NCBI GenBank assembly: GCA_002348925.1
Contig: DEBV01000004.1
Span: 1-41,801 of the forward strand
From: Alphaproteobacteria bacterium UBA2947
Lineage (GTDB): Bacteria; Pseudomonadota; Alphaproteobacteria; Rs-D84
DNA length: 41,801 bases
Direction: 5' to 3'
The position numbers and the translations under genes were made by a program. Of the stretch, positions 1,206 through 28,524 are shown piece after piece (within the stretch, counting starts at the first letter, position 1; each line of letters begins with the position of its first letter). The notes beneath the pieces are model-generated. The model worked only from the letters and a program-made list of their open reading frames with translations, was not told where the DNA came from and made no database searches.

Positions 1206-1327
1206 AGTTATTTGTTTATTATATTTTTTCAAACCTTGCCACAGGTATAAAATCAAAATATTTTGTTGATAATAAGAAAATATGCTCTATGATGAATTGT
1301 GAGAGAGAGCAAAAAAAGGTATTTAAT

Positions 1328-1702
1328 ATGAAAAAATTTGTTCTTTTATCTTTGGTTGCGTCATTGTTTTCAACAGTTGCAGTTGCAGATATTTATCGTG
1401 AAAGTGTAAATACTTGTGACGAACACGAAATGCGTGCCGCACTTGACAGAGCCGCCGCTGAAAAACGTGCTGTTATAACAATCGTAGAATGTGATAATGG
1501 CGTTGTTCGTACAATGGAAAAACCAGTATACAATGTAAAATCTGTTAAACCATGTGGTTGTGGTTGCGACAAAAAAGAAGAAGTTGTAAAACGTGAATAT
1601 TTTGTTCGTGAAACAGTGCAACAATACGAACCTGTTGTACAGTATGTTCCAACAACAACATACACTCGTGTTAAACCAGCATGTAATCATGGTTGCAATT
1701 AA
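1328..1702 (+). CDS. Small secreted Cys-motif protein, hypothetical
   Basis: ATG at 1328 lies 8 nt after AAAGG. Signal peptide MKKFVLLSLVASLFSTVAVA|D. The mature part has CGCGC and C-terminal CNHGCN motifs. The track start at 1289 is upstream of the signal peptide. Confidence 0.7.
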   Translation: MKKFVLLSLVASLFSTVAVADIYRESVNTCDEHEMRAALDRAAAEKRAVITIVECDNGVVRTMEKPVYNVKSVKPCGCGCDKKEEVVKREYFVRETVQQYEPVVQYVPTTTYTRVKPACNHGCN

Positions 1703-2679: not shown

Positions 2680-4824
2680 ATGACTTTTCGCGTAAATACG
2701 AATTCATTAAAAAATGCGATGGGAACGATGTTCTTGTTGGCGGCTGCGTTTTTCGTATGTTCGACACTGATTTCAATGCGTTCTGTGTTCGCAGATCCAG
2801 TTGCCCCAGCAAATACATTGCCTGGGCGTTCTGGTCGGACCAGCCCACGTGCAGCACTTGAAAATCGTGCTGTCACAGCACGCACCACGGTTGCACAAAA
2901 TCAAGACGCAAGCAGAACAACAACTTCACGTGGTGGTTCTGCAAATCGTGTTGTCACTTCGCGCAGCAAAGTTTCCACGCGCCCAACAAGCACAACAACA
3001 ACGTCTTCTCGTGGTGTCACAGCGCGTAATCAGGTTGTAAAAAATTCCCGTTCAAATCGTGCTGTGCGTGCCAGAACAAGCACAACACCATCACGTGTCA
3101 GTGCAACAGGTACAATGATGGCAGGAAGTCGCGCAAGCACTTCAACTTCTTATTCTTATTTGGCCAGCAGTTTGTACACTGGTTCTTATTCGAACATAAT
3201 CGATTCCAGTACAGGTTTGATTTCAGCAGACGCATATTCAAATTGTATGGAAAGTTATTATACATGTATGGATGAAATCTGCACAGCCAGAAGTGATACC
3301 AAGGGTCGTTGTTCGTGCGCTGGACGTGCAACCAATTTCTTGGCGGCAGAAACAGCATTGGAAGAAGCCAATGAAGAACTTATAAAATTATCTGGTCAAT
3401 TATCTCTTTTGATTGCTACCAAGGGCAAAGGTGATGATTTGTCTGCTGCGTTTTCTTTGACAGATGCAGAAAAAGTTATGAATTGCGTTTCTTACAAAGA
3501 AGCAACAGATAAACAGGCATGGTGTGATGAACATCCAACCTTTACAGATTCTGGTACAGCTGCATCTTGCGGTATGCCAAGTTATTGTACATCTAATGAT
3601 TTCGGATTTGATATCAAGAACATAGATGGTTCTTCGTCTGATATTTTGTCCCAATTGAAAGCATGGGCAGACGCAAAAGATTTGGCAAAAGAATACACAA
3701 TGTCAGATACAAACGGTCTGTTGAATAAATACACAACTATTTCAGGTGTTGTAAATGGTTTGGTTGGTTTGAATGATTCTACGGATTTGGATGAAGCTTC
3801 GTTAGATTCTTTGGCAAACAAATGGGGATACAAGTTGTTTGAATATGCGCACAACAATGTTTGTGGTCGTGTATTAGATTCTTGCTTTAACGGTATTTAC
3901 GAAGCCTGTGGCACACCAGTTAGCGTGACAGATTCTGATGGTAAATCGCATACAAAATGTGCAAACGGTGCAACAACCAGTTGTCCATTTAATTACAACA
4001 GTTATATTTCTGTTGTGACCAGCGGTGACAACCAAGGTGATGTTAAATTAAATGAACGCAACAGTGGAAATACAACAACAACTTCGACTGCGGCATGTTT
4101 TGGTTATACGACTACGACAACATCGTCAACCGCAACACGTACAAGTACGACCACAACCACAGATCCTTATGCAACTTTGCGTGGACCTGTTGCTGATGCG
4201 CGTCGCAGCATAATGCAAAAATACTTGTTGGACGCAAATGCAGCGTGTGATGTTTATGGCAGTGCTTTGAAACAAACAGCACAAAACATAAATTATCAAA
4301 AGATTGCGGCAGAACAGGCATTGCAACAAAAACGTCTTGAATTCAAACAAGAAGAAGAAGCATCTGTTTTGGCAAACGCAACAACTGCAATCAACAACTT
4401 TAACGAATGTATAAGCGAAATTTGGGATTGTTACGAAGATTATGCAGACGAAGACAAATGGACAACTGCACGTATCAAGGCATATTGTTCACAAGTTTCA
4501 CAAGTTCCTCATTGTTATGAAACTATGATTTGTTCTCCGTTGAAATCGCAATATATCGCGGTTGTGGACAAACCAGATGTATCGTCTTGTAAAATTGTTG
4601 AAGACGGCGAAGCATATGATTACAGAAAAGATACTTGCCGTAACGTTGTGACAATAAGCGAAATCTTGTATGGAACAGGTACTGCGCCTTCATCAAATAC
4701 AACATCTGGAAACTCTGCGGGTATTCGTGAAGCATGCTTGCAAGAAGCGTTGAATTGCGGTACTGGTGCGCAATATTCTGACGAAGGTGGATGCTTGCGT
4801 GACTGGCGTAAGACATCTGATTAA
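2680..4824 (+). CDS. Large secreted Cys-rich / coiled-coil protein, family member A (714 aa), unknown function
   Basis: SD GGGAGAA. Signal peptide ...FLLAAAFFVCSTLISMRSVFA|DP. Arg/Val/Ser/Thr repeat region (AVTART, VVTSRS, GVTARN, AVRART). Cys motif CMESYYTCMDEICTARSDTKGRCSC. Predicted coiled coils and Thr-rich tracts. 26 Cys in the mature part by my count. Own promoter and terminator. Confidence 0.9.
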   Translation: MTFRVNTNSLKNAMGTMFLLAAAFFVCSTLISMRSVFADPVAPANTLPGRSGRTSPRAALENRAVTARTTVAQNQDASRTTTSRGGSANRVVTSRSKVSTRPTSTTTTSSRGVTARNQVVKNSRSNRAVRARTSTTPSRVSATGTMMAGSRASTSTSYSYLASSLYTGSYSNIIDSSTGLISADAYSNCMESYYTCMDEICTARSDTKGRCSCAGRATNFLAAETALEEANEELIKLSGQLSLLIATKGKGDDLSAAFSLTDAEKVMNCVSYKEATDKQAWCDEHPTFTDSGTAASCGMPSYCTSNDFGFDIKNIDGSSSDILSQLKAWADAKDLAKEYTMSDTNGLLNKYTTISGVVNGLVGLNDSTDLDEASLDSLANKWGYKLFEYAHNNVCGRVLDSCFNGIYEACGTPVSVTDSDGKSHTKCANGATTSCPFNYNSYISVVTSGDNQGDVKLNERNSGNTTTTSTAACFGYTTTTTSSTATRTSTTTTTDPYATLRGPVADARRSIMQKYLLDANAACDVYGSALKQTAQNINYQKIAAEQALQQKRLEFKQEEEASVLANATTAINNFNECISEIWDCYEDYADEDKWTTARIKAYCSQVSQVPHCYETMICSPLKSQYIAVVDKPDVSSCKIVEDGEAYDYRKDTCRNVVTISEILYGTGTAPSSNTTSGNSAGIREACLQEALNCGTGAQYSDEGGCLRDWRKTSD

Positions 4825-4828
4825 ATTG

Positions 4829-4857
4829 ACCGCCCAATCGGGCGGTATTTTTTTATT
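4829..4857 (+). terminator. Intrinsic terminator
   Basis: ACCGCCC(4829-4835) AATC GGGCGGT(4840-4846) followed by ATTTTTTT. Confidence 0.8.
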
Positions 4858-4887
4858 CAAAAAAATTCTGTAAACCAATCTTGCCAC

Positions 4888-4916
4888 TTTACAGCAAATC
4901 TTTTTTATGATAAAAT
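4888..4916 (+). promoter_or_regulatory. Sigma70-type promoter of the 4931 gene
   Basis: TTTACA (4888-4893), a 17-nt spacer, then TAAAAT (4911-4916) preceded by TG (TGaTAAAAT). The ATG at 4907 lies inside this promoter, which argues for the 4931 start. Confidence 0.5.
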
Positions 4917-4930
4917 TAAATGAAAGAGAG

Positions 4931-7033
4931 ATGAAGAATTTATCGCGCATTTTAACAGTATTACTCTGCTTTGCGCCTGTTGCGTACGCATCGGGTGCGC
5001 CTGTTGCAACAACTGCGGGGTCTAATTTAACTGCTTTTAACCCCAGCAATGCCAATAATAATCAGTGGGCAACTATGTCGAACGGACGTTATGATTCGGC
5101 AAATGCCCCAACTGCCAAGGCAGATTTTGGAAATTGTAATGCGTTGATTTTGCGCTGTGCACAACCAAAATGCAGTAATGGCGGTTGTTCAGAGGCATCT
5201 ATCGCTTCTGCGATTGTAAAGGGGTGTGTGCAATCCAATTCCAATTGTAAACAGTATGGCGATGATTTGGTTCAATATATGACTGCACAACTGGTTGCTT
5301 CATCAAACGCAAAGATAAACGAACAACAAGCGGCTGCGGCAAATGCGGCAGCAGAAGCGGCGCAACAACAATCTCAACAGCAGATGCAGCAAATGCAATA
5401 TCAGATGCAGCAGATGCAACAACAAATGGCACAACAGCAGGCTGAAAGCGCACAACAACTTCAAGAAGCGTTGGCACAACAGGCTGCACAAAATGCGGCT
5501 GCGATGGAAAGTATGAAATCTGCCGCAACAGATGCTGCCAAAGAAAACGAAGCGGGTGTATCGGCTTATCAACAAGAAGCAATTGACCGCGGAATTTCTG
5601 CAGATGTTATAGAGCGTCAAAAAATCACAGGTCAAATTATGACCGAAATTGAAAACGCCGAAGTATCGTTGAAAGAAGTCAAAGTTGCAATGAATAACGC
5701 GTTTGAATATGCGAAATGTGATGCGCGTGGAAATAATTGTTCTGGTCCAAAACGTGTAAAAAAATGGCGCGAATTGGCAACTGAATTTTTAGCCCCATAC
5801 GATAACACAATCGATAAAATCTATGATGCGCTGGTTATTGCTCAAACAGTGGGGATTGATTTATCGCAAATCTATATGATGCTTAACAATTCATGTAACC
5901 AATGGGGGCAATACCTTTGTCCGCAGATGAAAGATGGAATTGTTGTGTATCCTGATGTTGATACTGATTCTGACAAAAAACAAAAAACTTCACCAAAGGT
6001 TTGTGAAGGAGGGGATGAAAGTAAAAGATGTCGTCCGTGTACGTTGGTAAAGGTTTTAACAGAAAGCCAAGACGACCAAGATGCTGTTTATGCGGGTTGG
6101 GTAGATGCCGAATATTCAACAGACAATGGTAATACGACTGTTGTTGCGTGTGCGTCAGGTGCATTGAATTCTTCGAAATTGTTTGCGCGCAGAACAAAAA
6201 CCAAAAATGGCGCAGGCTTGGTTGATATAGATAAACTGGACACTTGGTTGCATCAGGTTGGAATTGATAAAACATATACAGATTTGTCTGTCAAACCCAC
6301 AAATTACTGTGGTGTGCTGTCAAGTTTAAAGGATGCTTTGACAAGGGCGGCTTTGGGTAAAAATATAGTTAAGGATCAGGCTTTATGTGTTTCAGACGTG
6401 GGGGGCACAGGACCAAAAGAAGACGAAAATTGCCCGTACATAAACCCGATATACGCAATTTGTGATACGCATCAGTATAATGCTAATGTGCCTGCTGGTC
6501 AGAAATTGAATTCTGATAAGATTGCAGAAATGAAAGAAATTATTGGTCTTAAAACCACTGTGATTTCACAACAGATGTATAAACAGTATGAATACCTTAA
6601 TGCGACATTGCGTCGTCTTAAAACTCAACTTGAAAAGGCGACGCTGACCGCAACATTGGAAGCCGCAGGTGCTAAATCCGAAGACGGTTCTTCATCTGGT
6701 GGTTTGCTGGGCAGTTCTTCGTCTAAGAATTCACAGTATGCAGATTGTTTTGGTAAAGATATTCAGAGTACTTTGTATTGTTTGCGTCAGAATTATGCGG
6801 CTTTGTCCAATCAAATAAACAATAAAAAATGTGATAAAAAAGCCAAGGCACAATTAAAGACAGACATCGGTCTAATAAATAGTTTGCTAACAAATGGTGT
6901 GACAGAATGTACAGATACTTCTTCAGTCGATAAATGTAGGGCTTGTCTTGGGTATTATAACGCAGGTTTGATTAAACTGGATGATGAAAATTTAGATCGC
7001 GAAGCTAAAAGACAAGGCAGATACAGAGATTAA
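4931..7033 (+). CDS. Large secreted Cys-rich / coiled-coil protein, family member B (700 aa), unknown function
   Basis: AAAGAGAG immediately upstream of ATG 4931. Signal peptide MKNLSRILTVLLCFAPVAYA|SG. Cys motif CNALILRCAQPKCSNGGC. Long Gln/Ala-rich predicted coiled coil (QQMQQMQYQMQQMQQQMAQQQ). Many paired Cys downstream. Confidence 0.9.
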   Translation: MKNLSRILTVLLCFAPVAYASGAPVATTAGSNLTAFNPSNANNNQWATMSNGRYDSANAPTAKADFGNCNALILRCAQPKCSNGGCSEASIASAIVKGCVQSNSNCKQYGDDLVQYMTAQLVASSNAKINEQQAAAANAAAEAAQQQSQQQMQQMQYQMQQMQQQMAQQQAESAQQLQEALAQQAAQNAAAMESMKSAATDAAKENEAGVSAYQQEAIDRGISADVIERQKITGQIMTEIENAEVSLKEVKVAMNNAFEYAKCDARGNNCSGPKRVKKWRELATEFLAPYDNTIDKIYDALVIAQTVGIDLSQIYMMLNNSCNQWGQYLCPQMKDGIVVYPDVDTDSDKKQKTSPKVCEGGDESKRCRPCTLVKVLTESQDDQDAVYAGWVDAEYSTDNGNTTVVACASGALNSSKLFARRTKTKNGAGLVDIDKLDTWLHQVGIDKTYTDLSVKPTNYCGVLSSLKDALTRAALGKNIVKDQALCVSDVGGTGPKEDENCPYINPIYAICDTHQYNANVPAGQKLNSDKIAEMKEIIGLKTTVISQQMYKQYEYLNATLRRLKTQLEKATLTATLEAAGAKSEDGSSSGGLLGSSSSKNSQYADCFGKDIQSTLYCLRQNYAALSNQINNKKCDKKAKAQLKTDIGLINSLLTNGVTECTDTSSVDKCRACLGYYNAGLIKLDDENLDREAKRQGRYRD

Positions 7034-7044
7034 AATCTTTTTCT

Positions 7045-7069
7045 CACCGCCCATGGCGGTGTTTTTTTT
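7045..7069 (+). terminator. Intrinsic terminator
   Basis: CACCGCC(7045-7051) CAT GGCGGTG(7055-7061) followed by T8. Confidence 0.8.
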
Positions 7070-7090
7070 AATTTTAAATTCTTGGGTAAT

Positions 7091-7208
7091 AACATTGTCA
7101 AAAACTCAGTGTCATGCTGAGCGAAGCGTGAGCATCCATTAACGAAAGCACAAGATTTGGTGTATATAGATTCTCACGCTCGTTTCACTCGCTCATAATG
7201 ACAATGTT
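7091..7208. repeat. 118-bp non-coding palindromic (MITE/REP-like) element
   Basis: Perfect 10-nt terminal inverted repeat AACATTGTCA (7091-7100) / TGACAATGTT (7199-7208). Inner imperfect inverted repeat GTCATGCTGAGCGAAGCGTGAG (7111-7132) versus the reverse complement of 7173-7202. No ORF. Confidence 0.55.
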
Positions 7209-7241
7209 GTATTTATTTGCATAAATTTTTCGACAAAATGG

Positions 7242-7269
7242 TTGACTTTTGGTATTTTTAATGTACAAT
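7242..7269 (+). promoter_or_regulatory. Sigma70-type promoter of rplU-rpmA
   Basis: TTGACT (7242-7247), a 16-nt spacer, then TACAAT (7264-7269). Confidence 0.5.
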
Positions 7270-7333
7270 TTGCATAAAATCTTGTGCAGATGCACAATTT
7301 TAAGTTAACAAAATAACCAAAAGAGAAAGTATA

Positions 7334-7633
7334 ATGGCTACATTTGCAATCTTTCAAACTGGTGGCAAACAATATCGCGTAAGCGAAGGTGATATTGTAA
7401 AAGTTGAAAAACTGAATGCAACTGGTTCGGTCACTTTTGACCAAGTATTAATGGTTGGTGATAAAGTTGGTACACCTTTTATCGAAGGTGCAACTGTTGT
7501 TGCTGACGTGTTGGAACAAAAACGTGATGACAAAGTTTTGGTGTTCAAGAAAAAACGCCGTCAAAACTATCGCAGAACTGCCGGTCATCGTCAGTTTATC
7601 ACTGTTTTGAAAATTAAATCAATCAAGGCCTAA
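7334..7633 (+). CDS. rplU: 50S ribosomal protein L21
   Basis: MATFAIFQTGGKQYRVSEGDIVKVEKL... is the canonical L21 N-terminus. SD AAGAGAAAG. Confidence 0.97.
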   Translation: MATFAIFQTGGKQYRVSEGDIVKVEKLNATGSVTFDQVLMVGDKVGTPFIEGATVVADVLEQKRDDKVLVFKKKRRQNYRRTAGHRQFITVLKIKSIKA

Positions 7634-7663
7634 TACGGACCCACGAACTTAAGGAGTTTAATT

Positions 7664-7930
7664 ATGGCACATAAGAAAGCAGGTTCTGCATCAACAAACG
7701 GACGCGATTCAGCTGGACGCAGATTGGGTGTTAAAAAATCTGGTGGCAGCCGCGTTATCCCAGGCAATATCATCATTCGTCAACGTGGAACTGCGGTTCA
7801 TCCTGGATTGAATGTTGGTATGGGTAAAGATCACACACTGTTTGCAAAAATCGCAGGTATTGTCACTTTCAAACGTGGCAACGGCGACAGAAAAACAGTT
7901 TCTGTTGTTCCAGAAACCGAAGCAAAATAA
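7664..7930 (+). CDS. rpmA: 50S ribosomal protein L27
   Basis: [25 protein letters not shown]...[22 protein letters not shown] is canonical L27. SD AAGGAG. Confidence 0.97.
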
Positions 7931-7952
7931 TTTTTAAATATTTTGTTATTTT

Positions 7953-7979
7953 CACCGCCCAATCGGGCGGTGTTTTTTT
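7953..7979 (+). terminator. Intrinsic terminator
   Basis: CACCGCCC(7953-7960) AATC GGGCGGTG(7965-7972) followed by T7. The 18-nt core is identical to the hairpin at 4829-4846. Confidence 0.85.
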
Positions 7980-8009
7980 ATAAATCTGCTTTTTTTATTG
8001 TGGTTTTTA

Positions 8010-8018
8010 TGTTATAAT
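8010..8018 (+). promoter_or_regulatory. Extended -10 promoter element of the 8031 gene
   Basis: TGtTATAAT (8010-8018). No good -35. Only ~12 nt separate it from the ATG, so the leader would be very short. Confidence 0.4.
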
Positions 8019-8030
8019 TAAAGGCAGGAA

Positions 8031-10583
8031 ATGAGAAGATTTTCGTTATTCTTTTTCATGGTTGCTTTCGCTGCAACAAACGTGTTTGCGGCAGAGTCTT
8101 CTATATCCCGCACAATTCCAAATAAAAATGCAAGTGATGCAACAGAACGCGTTGAAACCAGTACTGCAAAAAATCGCAGCGCGCGTACCGTTTCGCGTAC
8201 CGCACCAAATGCAACAAAATCGTCCACTAAAACGGTAAATGTTGTATCACGCAGTGTAAATAATCGTAAAAATAATACTGGTTCTTCGTTGGGGGCGGCA
8301 GTAAACACTGTTGGGCGCAGTGCACGTACTGATGCCGCCAGTATTAACAGCAGTCCAGCACTTCGTCGTGCAGGTGTGACATTGCGTGCGTCTACTGCGG
8401 AAGTTGGTGGTCGTGCAACAATTGGAAATACAGGCATTCAAACAGGTTCTAATATTGATGAACAAGTTCGTGGTGTTCAATCGCGTGCGTCTATATTTGG
8501 GGGCGGTAAAAAAACAAATATTACCGCGGAATCTTTGGCAAATGCAAAAGACGTTTTGGAAAAAACATCTGATTTGAATAACACTTGTCAGCAACAATAC
8601 AACGAATGTATGGACCAGTTTTGTGCGGTTGTAGATGCAAACCAAAAAAGATGTTCTTGTTCTGCGAATTTGTCTAAATATTCCAAAGTTCAAAAGGCGG
8701 TGGAAGATGCAAATGCCGAATTAAACGATGTTGCACAACGTATCCGTTATGTTGGTTTGTCTGCTGATGAAATTCGTGCGATTATGTCTGCAACAGAGGC
8801 GGAATTGGAAATGTCCAAGACAAAAGACAGTACGCAAACCCGTTCTATGTTGGACGACATTGCCGAAATGTTGAAAGACCCAACTTCTTCTACAACTTTG
8901 ACTTCGTCAACAACTGCGGATTCTTTGTTGGATATGGATTTGGATTTTTCATCTGATTCATCAGATTTGTTTTCGCTTGATATTTTCAACACATCAAACA
9001 CAGACATTTCTTCTAAACGTGGCAAGGCTCTTTATAACGAAGCAAAAAAACGTTGCAAAACTGTTTTGAATCGCTGCAAAGATGCAGGCGGTACGGAAAG
9101 TCAAATTTCTGGCAACTATGATTTGGCAATTGATAAAGATTGTGTTGCGTATGAACAGGGTTTGGAAAAATTAAATGATACATTGAAAAACAATGTGCGC
9201 AGTGCGAATTTAATGTTGCAAAAGGCGCGCCTTGCGGTGTTGCAAAATAAAAACCAATACGGAATCAAAGAATGTGTGGCTGCGCTGGAAAATTGTATGC
9301 TGGACGACATGGTTTGTGGCGATGATTACATAAAATGCGTAGATCCAACCAAGATGTTTATTGATGAAAATGGCAAGGTTATATTGGGACGCAATATTGC
9401 AAACATAACCAATTCAATGACTGCGTATAACAACACAAATATAAATGCAGATTTTATCAAAAGTTCGGTTGGTGATACAACTTGTGCTAACCATGATGGT
9501 GCGTGTGTTGTGAATTATTTACTGACGAAAATTGGAACAGGGGCAACCGTCAAAGACGGTGGGCTTTGCCGCGCAGTATTGGATAAATGTCAAGATTACA
9601 CATATGTTCAAAACGGCAAAACATCAACATATAATCCGTACAATGATGTTATTGTAAATTATATTCAACGCGCAATGGTAAATATAAAATCTGCACAATC
9701 AAAGATAATTTCGAATTATGCAGCGAATTGTATGTCTGATGTTCAAGATTGCTACAGCCAACAAAACAGCCAGATTACATCGTGGACATCGGCTGCAACG
9801 ATAGACAATATCTATAAAGTTTTAACAGGAACTTGCTACAGCACCGCGTTAACCTGTGGTTATGCGGTCTTTGCGTATGATAAAGAAATGGGCAATGCCA
9901 TTAGCGATACTTCATTGCCTGAATCTGATAAACAATTAAAACTTATAGACGGTATTTCACAAATGTTCTATCAAACCATGTTATGTCCGGATAATTCTGA
10001 ATATGTTACAGAAACTACAGCTGGTATGGTTAACGACAGGTGTGCATGCAAGGCAGGGTATGTGGTTTCTGGGGGACAGTGTGTGGTGTCTTGTCCGACT
10101 GATAAATCAAAGAAGCTTTTTGGAACATGTACTGCACAATGTCCAACTGGTATGATAGAAAAAAATAATGAATGTTTGTTGAGTGTACATTCAGAAATTA
10201 GTAATGCGTTTTATTTTGCAGAAGTTGAAGGTGTTTGTGTTGGTTGGGAAGGCAATTCTACAATATGTAATAAAGATTTTCCGATTGTAGCCAGCTTTGA
10301 ATATGGTGATGTTTATGGAAAAACGAAGGCGGAACATCGTACTAGAACTTCTTATGGTTATAATCATGTTCCTTTCGAAGAGGAATACTATGACTGTTAT
10401 GCTAAGATAATAGAATATCATTCAAAGAATAGTGTTGTATATGGGTTAGGAGGTGACTGGGTCTATGTGGGAGAGGCGGATTTTTATTACCAGTGCCCAG
10501 ATATAGCCGCAGGTTATTTTCAAGATGAAGACATGTTAGGACGTTATTTTGGAAAATATGGCACAATGGAATGGCCTGAATAA
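8031..10583 (+). CDS. Large secreted Cys-rich / coiled-coil protein, family member C (850 aa), unknown function
   Basis: Signal peptide MRRFSLFFFMVAFAATNVFA|AE. Arg/Val/Ser/Thr repeat region (TVSRTA, VVSRSV, TVGRSA, GVTLRAS, GVQSRAS). Cys motif CQQQYNECMDQFCAVVDANQKRCSC aligns with member A. The C-terminal part adds CACKAGYVVSGGQC-type Cys repeats and an aromatic-rich terminal domain. Confidence 0.9.
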   Translation: MRRFSLFFFMVAFAATNVFAAESSISRTIPNKNASDATERVETSTAKNRSARTVSRTAPNATKSSTKTVNVVSRSVNNRKNNTGSSLGAAVNTVGRSARTDAASINSSPALRRAGVTLRASTAEVGGRATIGNTGIQTGSNIDEQVRGVQSRASIFGGGKKTNITAESLANAKDVLEKTSDLNNTCQQQYNECMDQFCAVVDANQKRCSCSANLSKYSKVQKAVEDANAELNDVAQRIRYVGLSADEIRAIMSATEAELEMSKTKDSTQTRSMLDDIAEMLKDPTSSTTLTSSTTADSLLDMDLDFSSDSSDLFSLDIFNTSNTDISSKRGKALYNEAKKRCKTVLNRCKDAGGTESQISGNYDLAIDKDCVAYEQGLEKLNDTLKNNVRSANLMLQKARLAVLQNKNQYGIKECVAALENCMLDDMVCGDDYIKCVDPTKMFIDENGKVILGRNIANITNSMTAYNNTNINADFIKSSVGDTTCANHDGACVVNYLLTKIGTGATVKDGGLCRAVLDKCQDYTYVQNGKTSTYNPYNDVIVNYIQRAMVNIKSAQSKIISNYAANCMSDVQDCYSQQNSQITSWTSAATIDNIYKVLTGTCYSTALTCGYAVFAYDKEMGNAISDTSLPESDKQLKLIDGISQMFYQTMLCPDNSEYVTETTAGMVNDRCACKAGYVVSGGQCVVSCPTDKSKKLFGTCTAQCPTGMIEKNNECLLSVHSEISNAFYFAEVEGVCVGWEGNSTICNKDFPIVASFEYGDVYGKTKAEHRTRTSYGYNHVPFEEEYYDCYAKIIEYHSKNSVVYGLGGDWVYVGEADFYYQCPDIAAGYFQDEDMLGRYFGKYGTMEWPE

Positions 10584-13439: not shown

Positions 13440-14723
13440 TTATTTTTTCTTTAACCACGCATCAAATAATTTACCGCTTACAGTTTTAACATTGCCCCAA
13501 ACTGTCTTGGTGTCGTTTTTCAATTTTTCACCAAAAGAATTATCTATTTTTCCACCAATACCTTTTGCCAGTTCGTCTGCTTTGCCACCCAGATAGAAAA
13601 CAATAGCACCACACAATATCATTGTCATTGCTGAACCAACTGCATAAGTGTTATTGCTGTCTATGGATATTATGTTTGTTAATAATGCTGCACATATCGC
13701 AATAACTATGGCCAGCGATACAAAATAAATTGCCGCATTTATAAATGCAGATATAATATCTGATAATTTTTTTGTGTTAAATACTTTTAATAGACCAGAA
13801 AATATTTGTCCTGCATAATTTGTTTCTTTGCTGCCAGGCATAGATTCTGCCAATGCGGTAAAAGGCAACATCAAAAGTTTTAAAAACAAATCTGCGACAA
13901 CACCAAGCGTCATAAACGCATATTTGAAAATGCAACCGATAAACATAACCATGCAAACCAAACCGACGATAACCATAGTCGCACTGTGTCCAAAACCGTT
14001 AATCATCCATTCAAATGCAGAAGCAGTTGCGTGATAGAAATATACAGACAAACGTGATGGTAAACACATTATATTTGCCGCAGCGTCTGGGTTGATTAAA
14101 AGTTTATCTGATGTGTTTGCATTAACATACTGATGAATTGTTGCACAAGTATCTGGAATATTAACATTATAAGTTTGTGCAACAGCACCCAAAATAAAAT
14201 CAGATAAATACACACCAAGCGACAGAATAGGTGTTATAACCATTGTGAACAATTTTGCAGGTCCATAATTTAACACAATTACCCAAATTGCAATAGTTAT
14301 GCCTTTGATAAATATATCATATAAAACAGTTTTATAATCTGTTGATTCGCGAATCATTCTGTATGCTTCCAATGCTATCCAAAAAGCATACATAACAAAC
14401 AAAAACCATATAACGAATCGCACCAAAGATATTTGTAAAACATAATCGATTGAAGATAGGGCCTTCATAAATACCAGTCCCAGTTTTACTTCCACAGGAA
14501 CAAAATTTGTTGAATGCAGATTTGTTTGAAAAGTTTGTTGAAAATTTTTTACATCATCGGACAAATCATTATTGTAAGTTTTCATATTGTCCAAAGTCAT
14601 CCAGTTGCCGTATTCGCCAACATCACCATTTGGAACGTTGCCTGCCGCGTATGTTGCACCAACAAATGCAGTCACGCAAAAAATACAAACTAATAAAAAT
14701 TTCAAAATTTTACGAATCTGCAT
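13440..14723 (-). CDS. Polytopic membrane protein, paralogue 1 of 5 (VirB6/TrbL-like architecture, unverified)
   Basis: Start taken at ATG 14723 (MQIRKILKFLLVCIFCVTAFVGATYA signal peptide), 1 nt after the stop of the upstream gene. The track start at 14798 would overlap that gene by 74 nt. About 7 hydrophobic helices. Loop Cys pair (DTC...IMC). Tail ...KTVWGNVKTVSGKLFDAWLKKK. Confidence 0.85.
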   Translation of the reverse strand: MQIRKILKFLLVCIFCVTAFVGATYAAGNVPNGDVGEYGNWMTLDNMKTYNNDLSDDVKNFQQTFQTNLHSTNFVPVEVKLGLVFMKALSSIDYVLQISLVRFVIWFLFVMYAFWIALEAYRMIRESTDYKTVLYDIFIKGITIAIWVIVLNYGPAKLFTMVITPILSLGVYLSDFILGAVAQTYNVNIPDTCATIHQYVNANTSDKLLINPDAAANIMCLPSRLSVYFYHATASAFEWMINGFGHSATMVIVGLVCMVMFIGCIFKYAFMTLGVVADLFLKLLMLPFTALAESMPGSKETNYAGQIFSGLLKVFNTKKLSDIISAFINAAIYFVSLAIVIAICAALLTNIISIDSNNTYAVGSAMTMILCGAIVFYLGGKADELAKGIGGKIDNSFGEKLKNDTKTVWGNVKTVSGKLFDAWLKKK

Positions 14724-14724
14724 T

Positions 14725-16185
14725 TTATTTTTCCTTGTCCATTTTTTCGCGAACTTTTTCATATATTTTAACAGGCGCATTATAAGCGGTTTTTCCAAAG
14801 TCTTTTACCCATTGACCATAATCAAAAGATTCTTTGCCTTCTGAGCCTAATATTTCGTCTACCTTTGGTGACACAACCCAGAAGTACAAGAAGAATACGC
14901 CAAACATAAATAACAAGAATTCAAATCCGTCATCCATGAAATCAAAAGCCCCAGGATATCTTTTTTCAACAATTGTTTTCTGAGTTTTAAAACATGCTGT
15001 GAATTTTTCTTTGTCCATTTCACCGTCAATCAAAGACACTTTTTCACATGTCGAAAACACATTCATAACAGACATTGTTTTTGCGTCCATGTTTTGTTTT
15101 GTTACATCAGAAAGCAGTGGTGGCAATATGCTGGTAAAACCATCTTCGGGGCCTGGATAGAATTCATCAGCAGCAAAATAAACGACCGCATATATGATTA
15201 CTATTTTTAAACTGATTTTTAATATGCTAATTGCAGAATCTATCAACATTTTTATGCCAGAATTTAACAAGCCCTTGGCCAGTCCCCAAACTTGTTCAAA
15301 TGCAGCGGCTGCAATTAAAAGCGGCATAAATATAATGATGAAAACTAATTTAAAGAAAACAGTTAATATCTTAAAGAATAAATCAAACCCAATAATCAGG
15401 AACATTATAACCAAAGCAAATCCAGCCAGCCATGTAAACATACCACCGACTTTTTCATTTAAATCCAGCCATGAATAATTCATCAGGGCAAAACCACCAC
15501 CTGCACCAGCCAACATAACAGTATTTAAATTACCGACTACACACATAAATGGGTGTAATACAGGTGTAAATATATCTTCGTCTTTATCCGAAATTTCTGG
15601 GATTTCACATTTTGCACCGCTTATAACACCTGTTGCCATCATGGAAAGATTTGTTCCAATATACATTACAGGTGTCACAGTTATATTTGTGACGGCTTTC
15701 AATGTTGTTGTTCCGCTCCAACTTAACGCACCAATTAAAGCGCCCGCAATTAAAACGCGTACACCTGTTTTCCAAACTTTTTCAAACCATTTTTTAAAAT
15801 CGAGTTTTGGTTCATTATCTGTTAAATCTTTTATATCTTTGGATGCGGCTTGTTCGCGAAAGAAAGAAAGTGTGTGAAAAATTAAAAATATGCCAAACCC
15901 AACCGCCATCAGTATCCATAAATTATGAACAATGCCGTTCCAGAACATTTCTGTCGCACGGCCCAGTACAGCAAACAAATCACCAAGATATGCACAAAGG
16001 AAACAGCCATTAACAGATGCAGCATCACCGTTGTTGCTGCCTATTTGTTGCATAAACGCATCAACGCTGGTGTATGAAAGAGACGCACCACCCAAAGAAT
16101 GACTTAAATACCAAATGCCAATACCCAACGCGATTGCGCCCATCAAAAATTTCAAGCCGTTTAAGATAAGCCATTTTTTTATCAT
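14725..16185 (-). CDS. Polytopic membrane protein, paralogue 2 of 5
   Basis: Its ATG overlaps the upstream TGA (ATGA). N-terminal anchor, CFLC motif before the first core helix, loop Cys pair (AKCEIP...FMC), clustered TM helices, tail ...YGQWVKDFGK...KVREKMDKEK. Confidence 0.88.
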   Translation of the reverse strand: MIKKWLILNGLKFLMGAIALGIGIWYLSHSLGGASLSYTSVDAFMQQIGSNNGDAASVNGCFLCAYLGDLFAVLGRATEMFWNGIVHNLWILMAVGFGIFLIFHTLSFFREQAASKDIKDLTDNEPKLDFKKWFEKVWKTGVRVLIAGALIGALSWSGTTTLKAVTNITVTPVMYIGTNLSMMATGVISGAKCEIPEISDKDEDIFTPVLHPFMCVVGNLNTVMLAGAGGGFALMNYSWLDLNEKVGGMFTWLAGFALVIMFLIIGFDLFFKILTVFFKLVFIIIFMPLLIAAAAFEQVWGLAKGLLNSGIKMLIDSAISILKISLKIVIIYAVVYFAADEFYPGPEDGFTSILPPLLSDVTKQNMDAKTMSVMNVFSTCEKVSLIDGEMDKEKFTACFKTQKTIVEKRYPGAFDFMDDGFEFLLFMFGVFFLYFWVVSPKVDEILGSEGKESFDYGQWVKDFGKTAYNAPVKIYEKVREKMDKEK

Positions 16186-17366
16186 TTATCTTTCTTGTCT
16201 TTATCTGCGCTTTCAGGGTTAATAATTATCTTTGCCATTTCTTTGGTTTTATTCGCAATAATTTTTGTTAATTGAAATACATTTTCTCCCATTTCTTTGG
16301 AAAGTTGATTTTCCTGTTTTATATTAAACACAGATAATATTTTTTCGGTCACTTTTGGAACTTGATCTGCAATATAATTTATAACATACACCAACACGAT
16401 TGCACCAGCAAAAGTTATCTGCATCGCGCTGGAATTTTCCAAATCAAAATCAAACAAAGATTCACTTGAATTGTGTATTGAATCCGCATCTACACCATTT
16501 GCATCTAAAAAGCCACGAATAATTAACATAATAACAGTGTATGTTAAAATTGTAGACACCACAGATACAATGGCGTTTATAAGTTTTTTTATTTGACCAC
16601 CACCAAGATTAGAACCTAAATTTTTCATCCAACCAGGTGCATCTGCTGCGCCCTTGAATATAAACAACACAAGCGATAACGGGAAAAAGAACGCAAACAT
16701 TGCCATTGCGAAAATAACATCCATAAAACAGAAAGAATATTTAATAAATAATTTTGCAAAATTATAAGTCAAAAATATTCCAATAAAACAAATAATGATA
16801 TGTTTTACAAGCGCACCAATACCAAGCAGTGCTTTAAGGTCAAACGCTGCGTCTATAATGCCAATACCGATTTTTATGTAAACTTGGAAGTTTGCAACAG
16901 AAGTTTCCAGTATTTGCATTATTGTGTCGCGTAATTCTGGATTAAAGAAACCGTTGTTGCCCAATTGAAGTGCGTTTTCGTATGCTGGTATCGCGTAATC
17001 TGCTGGCAACATCGCTTTTGAATATTGCAAAGTCATTACAGCCACTGGTTCAAAAGTAATTGTTGAAATAAATCGCGGGACTATTAAACCCATGCTTAAC
17101 AACGACAACGCAATCAAAGATTTTACCAACAATGGACGGATTGCTTTGTCAAACAAAGAATCTTTTGCGCCTGTTTTGATGTTCTGCCATACGATGTTTA
17201 ATATGTAAAATGCCAGCAATACACAGAATATAAGAACGCTGAAAATGCAAAGGCGTTGATATGCGGCGGCGGCAGTGTTCGAAATAATGGCGAACAGATT
17301 GTCAAACACAGGACATGTCCAACATTGAACACCAGAATCTATTAAAGAGTTTGCCAATTCTTGCAT
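16182..17366 (-). CDS. Polytopic membrane protein, paralogue 3 of 5
   Basis: Starts 3 nt after the upstream stop. CWTCPVF motif at residues 15-21 followed by a TM helix. Clustered TM helices. Lys/Asp-rich tail. Ends with TGA. Confidence 0.88.
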   Translation of the reverse strand: MQELANSLIDSGVQCWTCPVFDNLFAIISNTAAAAYQRLCIFSVLIFCVLLAFYILNIVWQNIKTGAKDSLFDKAIRPLLVKSLIALSLLSMGLIVPRFISTITFEPVAVMTLQYSKAMLPADYAIPAYENALQLGNNGFFNPELRDTIMQILETSVANFQVYIKIGIGIIDAAFDLKALLGIGALVKHIIICFIGIFLTYNFAKLFIKYSFCFMDVIFAMAMFAFFFPLSLVLFIFKGAADAPGWMKNLGSNLGGGQIKKLINAIVSVVSTILTYTVIMLIIRGFLDANGVDADSIHNSSESLFDFDLENSSAMQITFAGAIVLVYVINYIADQVPKVTEKILSVFNIKQENQLSKEMGENVFQLTKIIANKTKEMAKIIINPESADKDKKDK

Positions 17367-17369
17367 TTT

Positions 17370-18668
17370 TTATTTCTTTAGTTTTCCTGCAGTTTCCAAA
17401 ATCTTTTTTATTGCCCCAGGTGTCGCTTTCGCTTTGCCCCACATAACTTTTGCATCACCTGTTACTTTGTTATATAACCAGTGGTCTTTGGTTGTATACA
17501 TATCTAATCTTTGACGGGTCATGTCGAAAATGTTGTGCATTAAAAAGAAAGTTAGCAATGCAGATATCCACAATATAGAATGTTGGCCAAAATTCATAGC
17601 GCTGTTTGTGATAGATGGCACATTAGAAGTTGAAACACCGCCAGCCGCAACAACAAATACTGACGAAGACCAATTAAACAGTGCGCGAACCAGTGCAATA
17701 TTTACACACAATATAAACGCACATGCAATCATCGTGATAATAAGATTTTTCAACGCATCTATTATTTGTGAAAACACAGGCAATATATCAAACCATTTGT
17801 CTGATTTTTTTGCGACCCACGCCAACACATTAAACGGATACATTATAAGCGATAAACAAAAATCAAATATGGCCTGAATTATCAAAAGTGCCATAAACAC
17901 ATTGGCTGATATAAACGCGAACAGCAACAATATCCCGCTGACTATGTTTAATAAATCTTCGCCACCATGTGGTATCATTGTCATTAAACCGCGCAATCCA
18001 GTTTTAAGAAAATCAAAACCGTATTTTATAACTTTGTTGTTTTCTTGCGAGATTATATAGACAGGTTTTACCAAGAAATCACAACTGCGTTTTGAAATCC
18101 ATCCAGATTCTTCAATGGAAGCAGGACACGCAGGTGCGTCGCTTGCATCGATTGTCGATTTGTTAATATTTACCAAAATTTGTTCTGTATAAATAGACCC
18201 GAATTCCAAAAATGGGTTAACCAGCCATTCTGTCACATATACAGGTTTTATTTGCAACAACAATACCCCCGCGACAATCGCACGAATACATGGTTTCAAA
18301 ACATTTTCTGATATTTTCCAAGGGTCCGCTTTGCCATCAACCATTTCGCCACCGTCTGAAAATCCAAGAAACGACAGCCAATCTTTTGGAAAGTGCATCT
18401 TAATCAAATACAAGCAAATATAAAAAGCCAGAAACGCATAGATGAACAAATATACGATTCCGTCGCCTTTGCCCACAAAAAAGTTATACAAAGATGTTGC
18501 GATATTCATCATTGTTTCCAAGACCAGTGGAACAAATGGTGCCAAATTATATGCGTCTAATATGTTTGCATGTGCAGGCAATACAAAAAAAGCACACAGC
18601 ACAAACGCACTGAACAATATTCTGGTGCACGATAACAAGCGTGATAACAGGGCTTTTTTTATATACAT
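17370..18668 (-). CDS. Polytopic membrane protein, paralogue 4 of 5 (first gene of the operon)
   Basis: AAAGAGAGA precedes the ATG. Signal peptide ...FVLCAFFVLPAHA|NILD. Loop Cys pair (PACPAS...RSC). Tail ...KVMWGKAKATPGAIKKILETAGKLKK. Confidence 0.88.
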   Translation of the reverse strand: MYIKKALLSRLLSCTRILFSAFVLCAFFVLPAHANILDAYNLAPFVPLVLETMMNIATSLYNFFVGKGDGIVYLFIYAFLAFYICLYLIKMHFPKDWLSFLGFSDGGEMVDGKADPWKISENVLKPCIRAIVAGVLLLQIKPVYVTEWLVNPFLEFGSIYTEQILVNINKSTIDASDAPACPASIEESGWISKRSCDFLVKPVYIISQENNKVIKYGFDFLKTGLRGLMTMIPHGGEDLLNIVSGILLLFAFISANVFMALLIIQAIFDFCLSLIMYPFNVLAWVAKKSDKWFDILPVFSQIIDALKNLIITMIACAFILCVNIALVRALFNWSSSVFVVAAGGVSTSNVPSITNSAMNFGQHSILWISALLTFFLMHNIFDMTRQRLDMYTTKDHWLYNKVTGDAKVMWGKAKATPGAIKKILETAGKLKK

Positions 18669-18695
18669 TCTCTCTTTTTATTTCTTATTTACTGA

Positions 18696-18704
18696 ATTAT
18701 ATCA
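18696..18704 (-). promoter_or_regulatory. Extended -10 promoter element for the four-gene membrane-protein operon
   Basis: The reverse complement reads TGaTATAAT, ~28 nt upstream of the ATG at 18668. Confidence 0.45.
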
Positions 18705-18720
18705 CATTTAGAATAATTTA

Positions 18721-18729
18721 TGGTATAAT
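18721..18729 (+). promoter_or_regulatory. Extended -10 promoter element for the divergent fifth paralogue
   Basis: TGgTATAAT (18721-18729). The ATG at 18737 is 7 nt downstream with no SD, so the mRNA may be leaderless. Confidence 0.4.
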
Positions 18730-18736
18730 TAAAATT

Positions 18737-20029
18737 ATGAAAGCGTTAAAAAATTTTTGGTTGTGGTTTGTTGCACTGTTGCCATTTTCAGCATGGGGTG
18801 TCGCGCCATTTGTATTGGGGGGCGCAGCGGTAGGCGTTGGTATCATCGGGGTTTCAATATGGCGAACCGCTGCACCTGTCGATATGGCAAGCGCGCTTGA
18901 TTTCTTTACTTCGTGTTGGACATGTCAGATTTTTTCAGATGTTATGATTTCTATGTCTAATTTATTGCCAAAGGTTTATGCGGCACTGGGTCAGGTTATA
19001 ATACCAATGTCTGCGACTTTGTTGGCGATATTTATTGCGTGGAATTTATTGTCAAATGCGCTGAATAACAAGATGGAAAGTGGTTCTAAAATTATGGGGA
19101 ATTTTGGAACACATATTTTCAGATTAAGTGTTTTAGTTATATTGTTGGCATTGCCGTTGCCGCGGTTGATAACAAATGTGTTTATTGAACCTGCGCTGGT
19201 TGTTGGTACATCTTTTGATTATGTTGTTTCGGATAATAATAAATTTTCTGAATGTATGGTTGCAACAGCCATCGCAGATCCTGTATCTGTTTCTGCGGAT
19301 GCATCTGCATATGGGGCGTTTTCGCCAAAATTGCGACACCAACTTGCATGCGAAGTCGCAAATGTTCACCAGATAACAGGTCTTGGTATGAGTATTGGTT
19401 GGACAATAATGAATATGGCTTTTAATGCAGACTATATGCATAAAATATTGGCGAATATCCCAATCTTTCCAAATATACCGATTTTCTTTGTGGGACTTTT
19501 GATATTGGCGTTATATTTTTATGCGCTTTTGCCGATACCATTATATTTCTTGGAAGTGTTTGTAAAATTGGCTCTGGATTTAGTGATGTTACCACTGATG
19601 TTGATGTCTTGGATGTTTGATGATGAAAACTTTGCGATTTTCCCAAAAGGTGGCAAAACGATTCGCCAAATGATAGATGATGTAATCAAAGCTGTGGTTG
19701 GAATTGCACTGACAGTGGTATTTCTAGCATTTTCGATAATGTTTCTTAATGCAGCGTTTGGCAGTATCGAAGGTGTTAATATTTTGCAACAAGCAATTGT
19801 GAATAACGATTCGAAAATACTGATGGACGGCTTGCTTTTCCACAATGGCAGCATTATCACAGTGGTCTTGATGGGTATCTTTTTGGCGATGTTTATGACG
19901 ATGATACCGCAACTGACAAATATGTTGTTCAAGATACAAATATCAGATAAATACTATCAGACAGCAAAAAAAGACTTGGATATAATGTGGGAAAACATGA
20001 AAAAATGGGCGTCCGCAATAAAAAAATAA
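18737..20029 (+). CDS. Polytopic membrane protein, paralogue 5 of 5 (divergent)
   Basis: Start taken at ATG 18737 (MKALKNFWLWFVALLPFSA...). The track start at 18641 is a GTG inside the opposite-strand gene. CWTCQIF motif (18914-18925 encodes CWTC). Loop Cys pair (SEC...LAC). Tail ...DLDIMWENMKKWASAIKK. Confidence 0.85.
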   Translation: MKALKNFWLWFVALLPFSAWGVAPFVLGGAAVGVGIIGVSIWRTAAPVDMASALDFFTSCWTCQIFSDVMISMSNLLPKVYAALGQVIIPMSATLLAIFIAWNLLSNALNNKMESGSKIMGNFGTHIFRLSVLVILLALPLPRLITNVFIEPALVVGTSFDYVVSDNNKFSECMVATAIADPVSVSADASAYGAFSPKLRHQLACEVANVHQITGLGMSIGWTIMNMAFNADYMHKILANIPIFPNIPIFFVGLLILALYFYALLPIPLYFLEVFVKLALDLVMLPLMLMSWMFDDENFAIFPKGGKTIRQMIDDVIKAVVGIALTVVFLAFSIMFLNAAFGSIEGVNILQQAIVNNDSKILMDGLLFHNGSIITVVLMGIFLAMFMTMIPQLTNMLFKIQISDKYYQTAKKDLDIMWENMKKWASAIKK

Positions 20030-27204: not shown

Positions 27205-27226
27205 ATGCCCGTTTGGGCATTTTTTA
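27205..27226 (+). terminator. Intrinsic terminator after murG
   Basis: ATGCCC(27205-27210) GTTT GGGCAT(27215-27220) followed by T5. Confidence 0.75.
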
Positions 27227-27276
27227 CTTGCCCACGATTCGTAATTTGTTCTATGATTAAACAAGGAAGGAAAGGA

Positions 27277-28524
27277 ATGAAATATTTTTCGTCATCTTTG
27301 ATTGCATATTTTGTTTGTGTAAATGCTGGGATTTGTGCGTATTTGCCAGTGGTTGATGTGTCACGTGGTGGTGTGTCTGCACGTGCGGCATTTGGCGAAG
27401 AAATCGTTCCTGAAAAAACGGTTGCGGTTGCACCTGTTCAAAAAAAAGAAAAAAAAGTTGTTGCACGTGTTGCGAAAAAAACAACTATGCCAATTGCGAG
27501 TGCTGATGTTTTAAAACCTAACCGCCCAAGTTCTGATTTGTGGGCACGCAATACTTCTGAAGTTTCTCTTCGCATGCCACGTATGGACGAAATTTCTGTG
27601 ATAAAATCAGAAGCGTTATTGCCAGAAGAATCTTTGATGGCAGAACCTGTAAAAATTGCAGAGGTAAAACAACAGCCAAACGAAACATTTGTTCAACGCG
27701 ATGAAGCGTTAAATGAATTAAAACAATTACGGGCAGAGGTTGCACGCCTTGCAAAAATGCAACAAGAATCTCAAATTGCAAATGCGCGTCCTATTTCTGT
27801 GCGCACGCCAATCGCAGGTGTTGCAAATGTTGCGCCAAAAGAAGTTTCTGAAACTGCACGCGAAGTAAATGTGCGTCGTAATGTTGTTTCTATGGATACG
27901 CCAAAACAGATTGCAAGTCGCAGCGTAAATAATGTTGCAGAACCAAAAACTGCATCTGTAAAAAATGAAATGACAAAGATGACGCCAAACGAATTGAAAA
28001 AAGCGTTCAAGAAAACTTATTTGTCAGAAAACAAACATTTATCAACATATCAAATAGATGATAAATTTGACGCAATAAGTGATATGTCTTTTGATACCGA
28101 AGGTTTCACTGCTGCACGCGATTTATCTGAAATGGAAGGTGGTGTTCGCCCAATGGAAATAAAAATATCTTTCCTTAATGGTGACAGCGGTTTATCACGT
28201 GATAATTATGATATTTTGACACAAACAGCATCCATAGTTGTAAATAATCCAAAGCGTGCAATTCAAATTGCAATACCAGAATCTGCAACGCATACAAAAG
28301 ATGCACGTAAATTAGCGGCTAAACGTTTAGCTATTGTTGAACAGGTTTTGCGCGATACAGGAATTGCAGATCAAAGAATTGTTCCTGTGTTATCACAACG
28401 CGATGATGACGTGTTTGTATTGCGTGTAATTTCTGGGGATACATTTGAATCTTTGCGTGAACAAAAACGCAATATGTTTGGTGATACTGTATCTACAAAA
28501 ACATACAAAAGTATGTCGTGGTAA
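27277..28524 (+). CDS. Secreted/anchored protein with long low-complexity linker and OmpA/MotB-like C-terminal domain
   Basis: ATG 27277 follows AGGAAAGGA. The track start at 27205 lies inside the murG terminator. N-terminal hydrophobic segment. Coiled-coil segment. The C-terminus ISFLNGDSGLSRDNYDILTQTASIV...RKLAAKRLAIVEQVLRDTGI resembles the OmpA_C peptidoglycan-binding fold pattern but is degenerate. Confidence 0.75.
   Translation: MKYFSSSLIAYFVCVNAGICAYLPVVDVSRGGVSARAAFGEEIVPEKTVAVAPVQKKEKKVVARVAKKTTMPIASADVLKPNRPSSDLWARNTSEVSLRMPRMDEISVIKSEALLPEESLMAEPVKIAEVKQQPNETFVQRDEALNELKQLRAEVARLAKMQQESQIANARPISVRTPIAGVANVAPKEVSETAREVNVRRNVVSMDTPKQIASRSVNNVAEPKTASVKNEMTKMTPNELKKAFKKTYLSENKHLSTYQIDDKFDAISDMSFDTEGFTAARDLSEMEGGVRPMEIKISFLNGDSGLSRDNYDILTQTASIVVNNPKRAIQIAIPESATHTKDARKLAAKRLAIVEQVLRDTGIADQRIVPVLSQRDDDVFVLRVISGDTFESLREQKRNMFGDTVSTKTYKSMSW

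Follow-up and report, generated by a model that had tools for sequence, protein, structure and literature searches.

The 41,801-nucleotide stretch analysed here (the window; contig DEBV01000004.1 of assembly GCA_002348925.1, Alphaproteobacteria bacterium UBA2947, lineage Rs-D84; G+C content approximately 38-40%) carries three plus-strand genes for large cysteine-rich proteins, here called A, B and C. A (positions 2680-4824, 714 aa) and C (8031-10583, 850 aa) are full-length paralogues and represent the A-type and C-type members of one family, and B is best explained as a member of a separate, narrower family of similar architecture, which may be convergent or very diverged. The open reading frame (ORF) of B opens at 4907 and ends at 7033 (708 aa from 4907); the start at 4931 (MKNLSRIL) is likelier, since it is the one used by most homologues and the upstream ATG is overlapped by a promoter-like site. 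The architecture common to A, B and C comprises a Sec signal peptide, C-x6-C pairs, a long coiled coil and variable blocks. A/C and B are new families of a broadly familiar kind, namely cysteine-rich exported envelope or surface proteins. We prefer to read them, with a probability of about 0.45, as abundant structural components of the outer envelope or the cell surface that would build a protease-resistant, disulfide-stabilised coat or fibril.

The relationship between A and C was first seen in a shared module of 84-86 residues, located at 3223-3483 in A (aa 182-268) and at 8565-8816 in C (aa 179-262), in which the cysteine motif C-x3-Y-x2-CMD-x2-C-x8-RCSC is followed by helices with invariant AN-x-EL and T-x-AE. 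The two copies match in BLASTP at an E value of 5e-9, and hhalign comparison of the A and C family profiles over the module gave a probability of 96.8% (E 2e-10). With more diverse A and C profiles, built from an exhaustive module search, hhalign aligned 550 columns (A 1-655, C 1-686) at 99.2% and E 1.3e-19. The cysteines in this alignment are collinear: A395/402/410/427 correspond to C415/422/429/436, and A577/584/603 to C567/574/602. It is this long alignment with its collinear cysteines that identifies A and C as paralogues over their full length.

On the other hand, B cannot be joined to the A/C family. Comparisons of B with A, C or the module by hhalign all failed, with probabilities of 0.2-6% whether the whole profile, the N-terminal Cys region or the diverse profiles were used, and the module hidden Markov model (HMM) gives no match to B at E<=10. 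B does contain a C-x6-C-x4-C triple with the A/C spacing; such a triple arises in approximately 2% of shuffles, so the agreement is suggestive only. A preliminary description of this DNA had proposed three paralogues with a shared early cysteine motif. All three ORFs are present at the positions it described, and the Cys peptides quoted for A (3244-3318), C (8586-8660) and B (5135-5188) translate exactly from those coordinates. Upon alignment the motif and the paralogy hold for A and C, and for B only the spacing of the triple is left.

The cysteines make up 3.5-3.8% of the three proteins, with totals of 27 in A, 25 in B and 32 in C. One cysteine of A lies inside the signal peptide, which leaves the 26 mature cysteines counted previously; B has 24, and the mature number is even in A, B and C. 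The dominant gap between consecutive cysteines is x6 in all three families and in divergent representatives (983 gaps, 149 representatives). C contains nine CX6C pairs where approximately one is expected, a number reached in 0 of 5000 shuffles, and A and B contain four (P 0.006) and three (P 0.025), respectively. In addition, these pairs are themselves paired: twin CX6C quartets of the form C-x6-C-(n)-C-x6-C occur 289 times in 120 representatives, compared to 3.8±2.0 in shuffles. The core of C (9273-9857) holds three such quartets (Cys 415/422/429/436, 485/492/513/520 and 567/574/602/609), all invariant, and their register is mirror-symmetric, for example 485+520 = 492+513 and 567+609 = 574+602. 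Similarly, a Cys cluster of B (5135-5248, aa 77-114, C-x6-C-x4-C-x4-C-x12-C-x6-C) is present in 120 of 120 homologues, and its C77/C84 and C107/C114 are in mirror register (77+114 = 84+107), which fits a doubly stapled helical hairpin with putative disulfide pairing.

Based on the i,i+7 spacing, both cysteines of a C-x6-C pair would face the same side of a helix, and the mirror symmetry is as expected if two disulfides bridged an antiparallel helical hairpin, although we infer this connectivity from the register. The accessory cysteines behave in a corresponding manner. A 282/297 co-occur in 53 of the 55/53 sequences that have them (phi 0.97), and B 642/677 in 55 of 56/55 (phi 0.98), by a statistic that ignores kinship among the sequences. 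This gain and loss of non-core cysteines in pairs points to disulfides rather than metal sites. Together with the core cysteines, which are 100% invariant, and the even mature counts, it backs the disulfide bonding that had been proposed.

All three proteins appear to be exported, as described previously. In each, a single hydrophobic segment lies at the N-terminus and leads into an A-x-A-type site; there is no further transmembrane segment, and cleavage is predicted between VFA and DP in A, AYA and SG in B, and VFA and AE in C. The signal peptide of A (2680-2793, aa 1-38, ending in SVFA before DP; cleavage placed by the -3/-1 rule) is unusually long, at 38 aa, and near-invariant in 112 homologues, including C27, S28, T29 and R34. 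Such conservation exceeds the need of export alone, and it may reflect an anchor that is retained, a role in regulation or a signal for recognition. A lipoprotein reading of A, suggested by the invariant C27 within the hydrophobic segment, was judged less likely: FFVC makes a poor lipobox, and in distant A-like proteins the xFA/DP site is kept and the cysteine is not. In A and C, the signal peptide is followed by a cysteine-free basic tail. That of A (2794-3189, aa 39-170) is Arg/Ser/Thr-rich, with a net charge of +17, a pI of 12 and a predicted local distance difference test score (pLDDT) below 40; that of C (8091-8525, aa 21-165) is Ser/Thr/Arg-rich, with a net charge of +14 and a pI of 11.8. 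Unlike these tails, the cores of A and C are acidic (pI 4.6-4.7). By composition, B has no basic N-terminal tail.

The location is suggested by the variable regions. In C, the identity among homologues is 0.7-0.94 in the core and 0.04-0.18 in the last 160 residues, the hypervariable C-terminus (10101-10580, aa 691-850, 4-18% identity to homologues). Cys-rich repeats of the types CxC..GY and C..CP.G begin at aa 669, and homologues lengthen them into arrays. Two C homologues, P0047 and P0056, have a precomputed Pfam match to PF27023, and their C-termini consist of arrays of a 'CV.SCP.G.Y' repeat, so PF27023 probably covers the variable repeat and not the conserved core. B has variable blocks at residues 331-390, 451-540 and 601-708, in which the Cys numbers change, and A is conserved over its whole length. 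A Pfam scan of 27 long relatives found Flg_new in seven and Ephrin_rec_like in two; some A homologues carry Flg_new (PF09479), and A, B and C of the window have no Pfam match to PF09479 or PF07699. Flg_new and ephrin-receptor-like modules are typical of extracellular proteins. The hypervariable C-terminus and the adhesin-type modules of relatives point to the cell surface.

In the AlphaFold2 (AF2) models, both A and B contain very long helices. The model of B has a mean pLDDT of 75, a predicted template modelling score (pTM) of 0.55 and 252 residues at pLDDT >=90, and shows long N- and C-terminal helices (115-210, 232-268, 536-586 and 619-702) around a central alpha/beta domain; the first of these is a Q/A-rich long helix or coiled coil encoded at 5249-5536. 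In A, residues 23-170 are disordered, the C-terminal third has a pLDDT of 73-88, and a helix of 88 residues spans 501-588. The longest predicted helices, 88 residues in A and approximately 95 in B, would measure about 13-14 nm. In the models, C189/C196, C395/C402 and C577/C584 (A) as well as C77/C84 and C107 (B) lie on helices.

No characterised family had been recognised for A, B and C, and searches of Pfam, NCBIfam, PDB sequences and Foldseek indeed place none of them. Pfam and NCBIfam scans gave nothing above threshold, and a PHROGs scan gave coiled-coil noise only; the sub-threshold library matches were to low-complexity or coiled-coil entries (TFIIA, SMC, portal). PDB sequence searches with the family profiles found nothing below E 0.19, and Foldseek found no match at E<=0.001 when both AF2 models were compared with PDB and that of B also with BFVD. 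The weak Foldseek neighbours, flagellin, variant surface glycoprotein (VSG), mitofusin and tape-measure proteins, share long helices only. A flagellin or hook-associated identity was rejected: the Foldseek E values are 2.9-9.9 at a template modelling score of at most 0.25, there is no Pfam match, Sec signals are present, and the lineage is without flagellar machinery (PMC12306168). No homology to OmcB/OmcA or S-layer families was found for A, B or C, and searches of the literature on Enterousia, Rs-D84, CX6C and Cys-rich surface proteins turned up no account of them.

The window belongs to a metagenome-assembled gut genome of Candidatus Enterousia, an uncultured bacterium with a reduced genome. 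Members of the order Rs-D84/Enterousia are gut bacteria with genomes mostly below 1 Mb, without flagella or a respiratory chain, without amino-acid, nucleotide or lipid biosynthesis and without standard transporters, and they are probably obligate symbionts or parasites (PMC12306168). A, B and C take approximately 6.8 kb, almost 1% of a genome of this size, and they are conserved, which suggests that the proteins matter to the organism. In the coat or fibril that we favour, A, B and C would cross the inner membrane through Sec, lose their signal peptides to signal peptidase I and adopt elongated, mostly helical folds whose helices are pinned by C-x6-C disulfides, often in twin CX6C hairpins. 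The basic, disordered tails of A and C may bind anionic polymers of the envelope or glycans of a partner cell, and each tail would continue into an acidic stalk that is highly conserved. At the C-terminus of C and of many relatives is a hypervariable module of adhesin type; displayed on the coat or fibril, these variable modules would make contact with host or partner cells. Of the abundant, disulfide-cross-linked envelope or surface proteins of the preliminary description, the envelope or surface role remains the most economical explanation; the abundance is presumed from the strong-looking expression signals and from the neighbouring rRNA and ribosomal-protein genes, and the surface location and an adhesive or structural function are likewise putative.

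Several points weigh against a surface coat. The rate of change of the conserved cores is nearly as low as that of housekeeping proteins, and exposed antigens do not usually evolve so slowly. A, B and C show no beta-barrel, lipobox, autotransporter, two-partner secretion (TPS) or type IX secretion system (T9SS) signal; with no device for outer-membrane translocation or anchoring found, the proteins may instead be periplasmic. The lineage is anaerobic and fermentative and has no respiratory chain (PMC12306168), and the oxidant for the disulfides is a puzzle. The AF2 model of A is weak (mean pLDDT 59, pTM 0.38), and the models cover A and B. The neglect of kinship in the accessory-cysteine statistic belongs here as well.

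Among the alternatives, a periplasmic scaffold or spacer is the most probable, although we consider it unlikely. Disulfide-stapled helical struts would set the architecture of an envelope that has lost many systems, and the basic tails would bind peptidoglycan or inner-leaflet lipids. The Sec signals with no recognisable outer-membrane export device, the helices of 13-14 nm and the high conservation of the cores all agree with such a role, as does the fact that A of this genome has no variable C-terminal module. What it hardly explains is the hypervariable C-terminus of C and the Flg_new and ephrin-receptor-like modules of relatives. The variable insert blocks of B, with their changing Cys numbers, also speak against it. 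A bolder reading, in which A, B and C together would form a new kind of extracellular, disulfide-stapled twin-CX6C helical fibre or lattice, serving as the attachment or feeding apparatus of Rs-D84 cells that live as epibionts or parasites on other gut cells, seems distinctly improbable; here, the basic tails would anchor the structure to the bacterium, and the variable C-termini would recognise the partner.

If the coat or attachment structure proves real, A, B and C would offer a handle to find the partner organism and to make antibodies or probes compatible with fluorescence in situ hybridization (FISH), and would give insight into how a reduced alphaproteobacterium interacts with other cells. 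Rs-D84/Enterousia are widespread in the gut, A, B and C are conserved across the genus, and the A/C family extends to related, presumably termite-gut, lineages. The twin-CX6C hairpin would add a new bacterial disulfide-stapled helical architecture, in an anaerobe with a puzzling source of oxidant.

Comparison with known systems suggests that the closest functional analogy is the chlamydial Cys-rich outer membrane complex, and the closest structural analogy the twin-CX9C/CX3C hairpin. Like OmcB and OmcA, the proteins A, B and C are Sec-exported, contain approximately 4% Cys and belong to a host-associated bacterium, and the tails of A and C are basic, a likeness of composition only. The basic N-terminal region of OmcB binds host glycosaminoglycans. 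OmcB and OmcA function through disulfide cross-linking of the envelope in an obligately host-associated bacterium; cross-linking in A, B and C is putative. However, OmcB consists of beta-sandwich repeats, whereas the AF2 models of A and B are mostly alpha-helical, with no relationship in sequence or fold; Pfam and NCBIfam give no Chlam_OMP6 or DUF11-type homology in A, B or C, and the genome of the window retains genes of peptidoglycan synthesis (PBP1a, MraY and FtsW). The earlier suggestion of a functional analogue of the chlamydial complex may thus be kept as a fair analogy and not as homology.

In the twin CX9C and CX3C proteins of the mitochondrial intermembrane space (CHCH, small Tim), helix-turn-helix hairpins are pinned by two disulfides between Cys pairs that have a fixed spacing on each helix, which is the arrangement that the mirror-symmetric twin CX6C quartets would allow. 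Membership in these families was rejected, since the proteins studied here have x6 as their dominant spacing, are bacterial, Sec-exported multi-hairpin proteins of 700-2300 aa, whereas CHCH and small Tim proteins are small, and have no sequence similarity to them. The variant-specific surface proteins of Giardia are also Cys-rich proteins of the gut lumen with variable repeats of CxxC or C..CP.G type. The C-terminal CxC..GY and C..CP.G repeats of C, and the Ephrin_rec_like module in 2 of the 27 long relatives, resemble such Cys-rich coats of gut protists, with their ephrin-receptor-like or furin-like repeats; only the variable end of C is alike, its helical core is without counterpart, and C of the window has no significant Pfam match. 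In the Sel1-like Cys-rich proteins of Helicobacter (Hcp), regularly spaced Cys pairs join the helices of each repeat. These proteins resemble A, B and C in being secreted helical repeats and differ from them in spacing and size; Pfam finds no Sel1 match in A, B, C or the 27 long relatives, and no beta-lactamase-like or immunomodulatory role is implied.

The distribution of the families is narrow. A, B and C each have more than 1000 homologues, all unnamed or 'hypothetical', and those with a named source come without exception from alphaproteobacterial metagenome-assembled genomes (MAGs) labelled 'Alphaproteobacteria bacterium' or 'Candidatus Enterousia'. When the B profile was run against GTDB genomes, one for each species, it matched 30 species loci, all from rumen or gut MAGs of the Enterousia/Rs-D84 group. 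The exhaustive search with the A/C module HMM matched at least 459 clusters at 50% identity, 250 of them at E<=1e-10. Along their whole length, 110 of the best 150 module representatives resemble C and 20 resemble A. The representatives range from 650 to 2338 aa, contain as many as 121 Cys and, with few exceptions, have a signal peptide at the start, and the organism names on family members are 'Alphaproteobacteria bacterium' and 'Rickettsiales bacterium' MAGs only. One match, P0409, a TPS/MBG protein without Cys, was discarded as a false positive caused by its repeats. As far as the data show, the A/C family is confined to Ca. Enterousia/Rs-D84 and related uncultured gut Alphaproteobacteria.

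Approximately 22 of the 30 loci share the order VIT - small 8-Cys protein - PagL - A - B - rplU - rpmA - C - dnaQ-like - uvrD - M1 to M5, where M1-M5 are polytopic membrane proteins (13440-14798, 14725-16185, 16182-17366 and 17370-18668 on the minus strand; 18641-20029 on the plus strand). Identities across loci are 56-90% for A, 54-82% for C, 44-75% for B and 70-93% for UvrD. B is relocated in locus L027 (10001-12232), where it lies between homologues of the window genes 32161-32889 and 33442-35691, and it stands in unrelated contexts in L004 and L023. In UBA1185 (L025, 10001-15569), three genes stand side by side: a shorter B-like gene, one for an exported 338-aa protein with 9 Cys, and a C-like gene. 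Further away, a contig of Joint Genome Institute (JGI) metagenome 3300009826, which we take to be a termite-gut sample, has A-like and C-like genes 5 kb apart, a second distant contig holds two C-like genes, and on a third a C-like gene (L031, 1220-3307) is directly upstream of secE-nusG-rplKAJL-rpoB; no B-like gene or M1-M5-like array is nearby on these three contigs. Some distant A/C relatives adjoin lpxB. The presence of A-like and C-like genes together on a distant contig implies that the A/C duplication is old and that both types were retained.

These arrangements bear on another explanation, that A, B and C act as effectors or toxins which the bacterium secretes into a host or partner cell, perhaps by way of M1-M5; we regard this as very doubtful. 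This lineage is expected to live as an obligate symbiont or parasite and has many membrane proteins of unknown kind (PMC12306168), and M1-M5, 3 kb downstream of A, B and C and in conserved synteny with them, are polytopic, weakly paralogous and of no known family. However, the whole 20-kb region is collinear in these small genomes, so the adjacency says little; B is elsewhere in some genomes, and distant A/C relatives adjoin secE-nusG-rplK or lpxB without the array. For the same reasons, the link between A, B, C and the membrane array put forward in the preliminary description has no support beyond general synteny. In addition, the architecture is that of a structural repeat, and no toxin or enzyme domain was found in A, B or C with Pfam, NCBIfam or PHROGs. 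M1-M5 themselves have 6-9 hydrophobic segments each and are related to one another at BLASTP E values of 1e-4 to 3e-9. They are kept after uvrD in most Enterousia loci and have no Pfam match even at E<=10 and no PDB sequence match. Their layout recalls the tandem VirB6-like arrays of Rickettsiales; no profile match supports an assignment to VirB6/TrbL.

It is equally improbable that the C-x6-C and CxC clusters hold Zn or Fe-S in a redox or metal-storage function: an anaerobic gut lineage without a respiratory chain to reoxidise a DsbB-type enzyme (PMC12306168) and the five clustered cysteines of the A/C module would suit metal binding, but accessory cysteines are gained and lost strictly in twos, the mature counts are even, the i,i+7 spacing with mirror-symmetric partners is the geometry of inter-helix disulfide staples, and there is neither a His/Asp co-ligand pattern nor an Fe-S match in Pfam (Fer4 at E 0.21, below the cut-off).

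The expression signals agree in part with the individual promoters and terminators described before. Upstream of A is a consensus match at 2571-2599 on the plus strand (TTTACA-17-TATAAT with TG, 11/12), upstream of B a consensus match at 4888-4916 (+), and upstream of C an extended -10 element, TGtTATAAT, read by eye at 8010-8018 (+). GC-rich terminator-like hairpins with a T-run follow A (4829-4856, +) and B (7045-7071, +), whereas after C there is no GC-rich terminator, only a weak A/T hairpin with a T-run before the convergent dnaQ-like gene. Since the regional totals of promoter and terminator matches are not above those of shuffles, separate (monocistronic) transcription is plausible and not shown. 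Ribosomal-protein genes are interspersed as described, with rplU (L21, 7334-7633, +) and rpmA (L27, 7664-7930, +; GC-rich hairpin and T-run terminator at 7953-7972) between B and C. The first 454 nucleotides of the window hold the 3' end of a 23S rRNA (1-242) and a 5S rRNA gene (340-454), so the Cys-rich genes sit between an rRNA operon and ribosomal-protein genes.

Other genes of the window may be mentioned. A fourth large exported Cys-rich ORF (36204-39269, +) encodes 1021 aa with 53 Cys and a signal peptide ending SGTALA before Y. It contains many repeats of the types 'C..VSAGYYS.GGG.SATP' and 'CLCKAGMYLSGSTC' and Flg_new-like G(W/H/M)TF.G(W/Y/F) motifs, has no Pfam match, and shares only short motif similarity with the C-terminus of C (E 0.06); its product is probably a variable surface protein. 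At 1289-1702 (+), a 137-aa ORF encodes a small exported protein with a signal peptide from M14 and 8 Cys, including CGCGC; in most loci the gene keeps this place, flanked by those for the VIT-family protein and PagL, and its product has no family assignment. Finally, a 439-aa ORFan without a Pfam match (27205-28524, +) lies directly after murG in the cell-division and cell-wall cluster, where mur/fts genes are expected; its product carries a hydrophobic segment at the N-terminus and a 'VSRGGVSAR' stretch resembling the A/C tails, and by eye its C-terminus appears OmpA/MotB-like.

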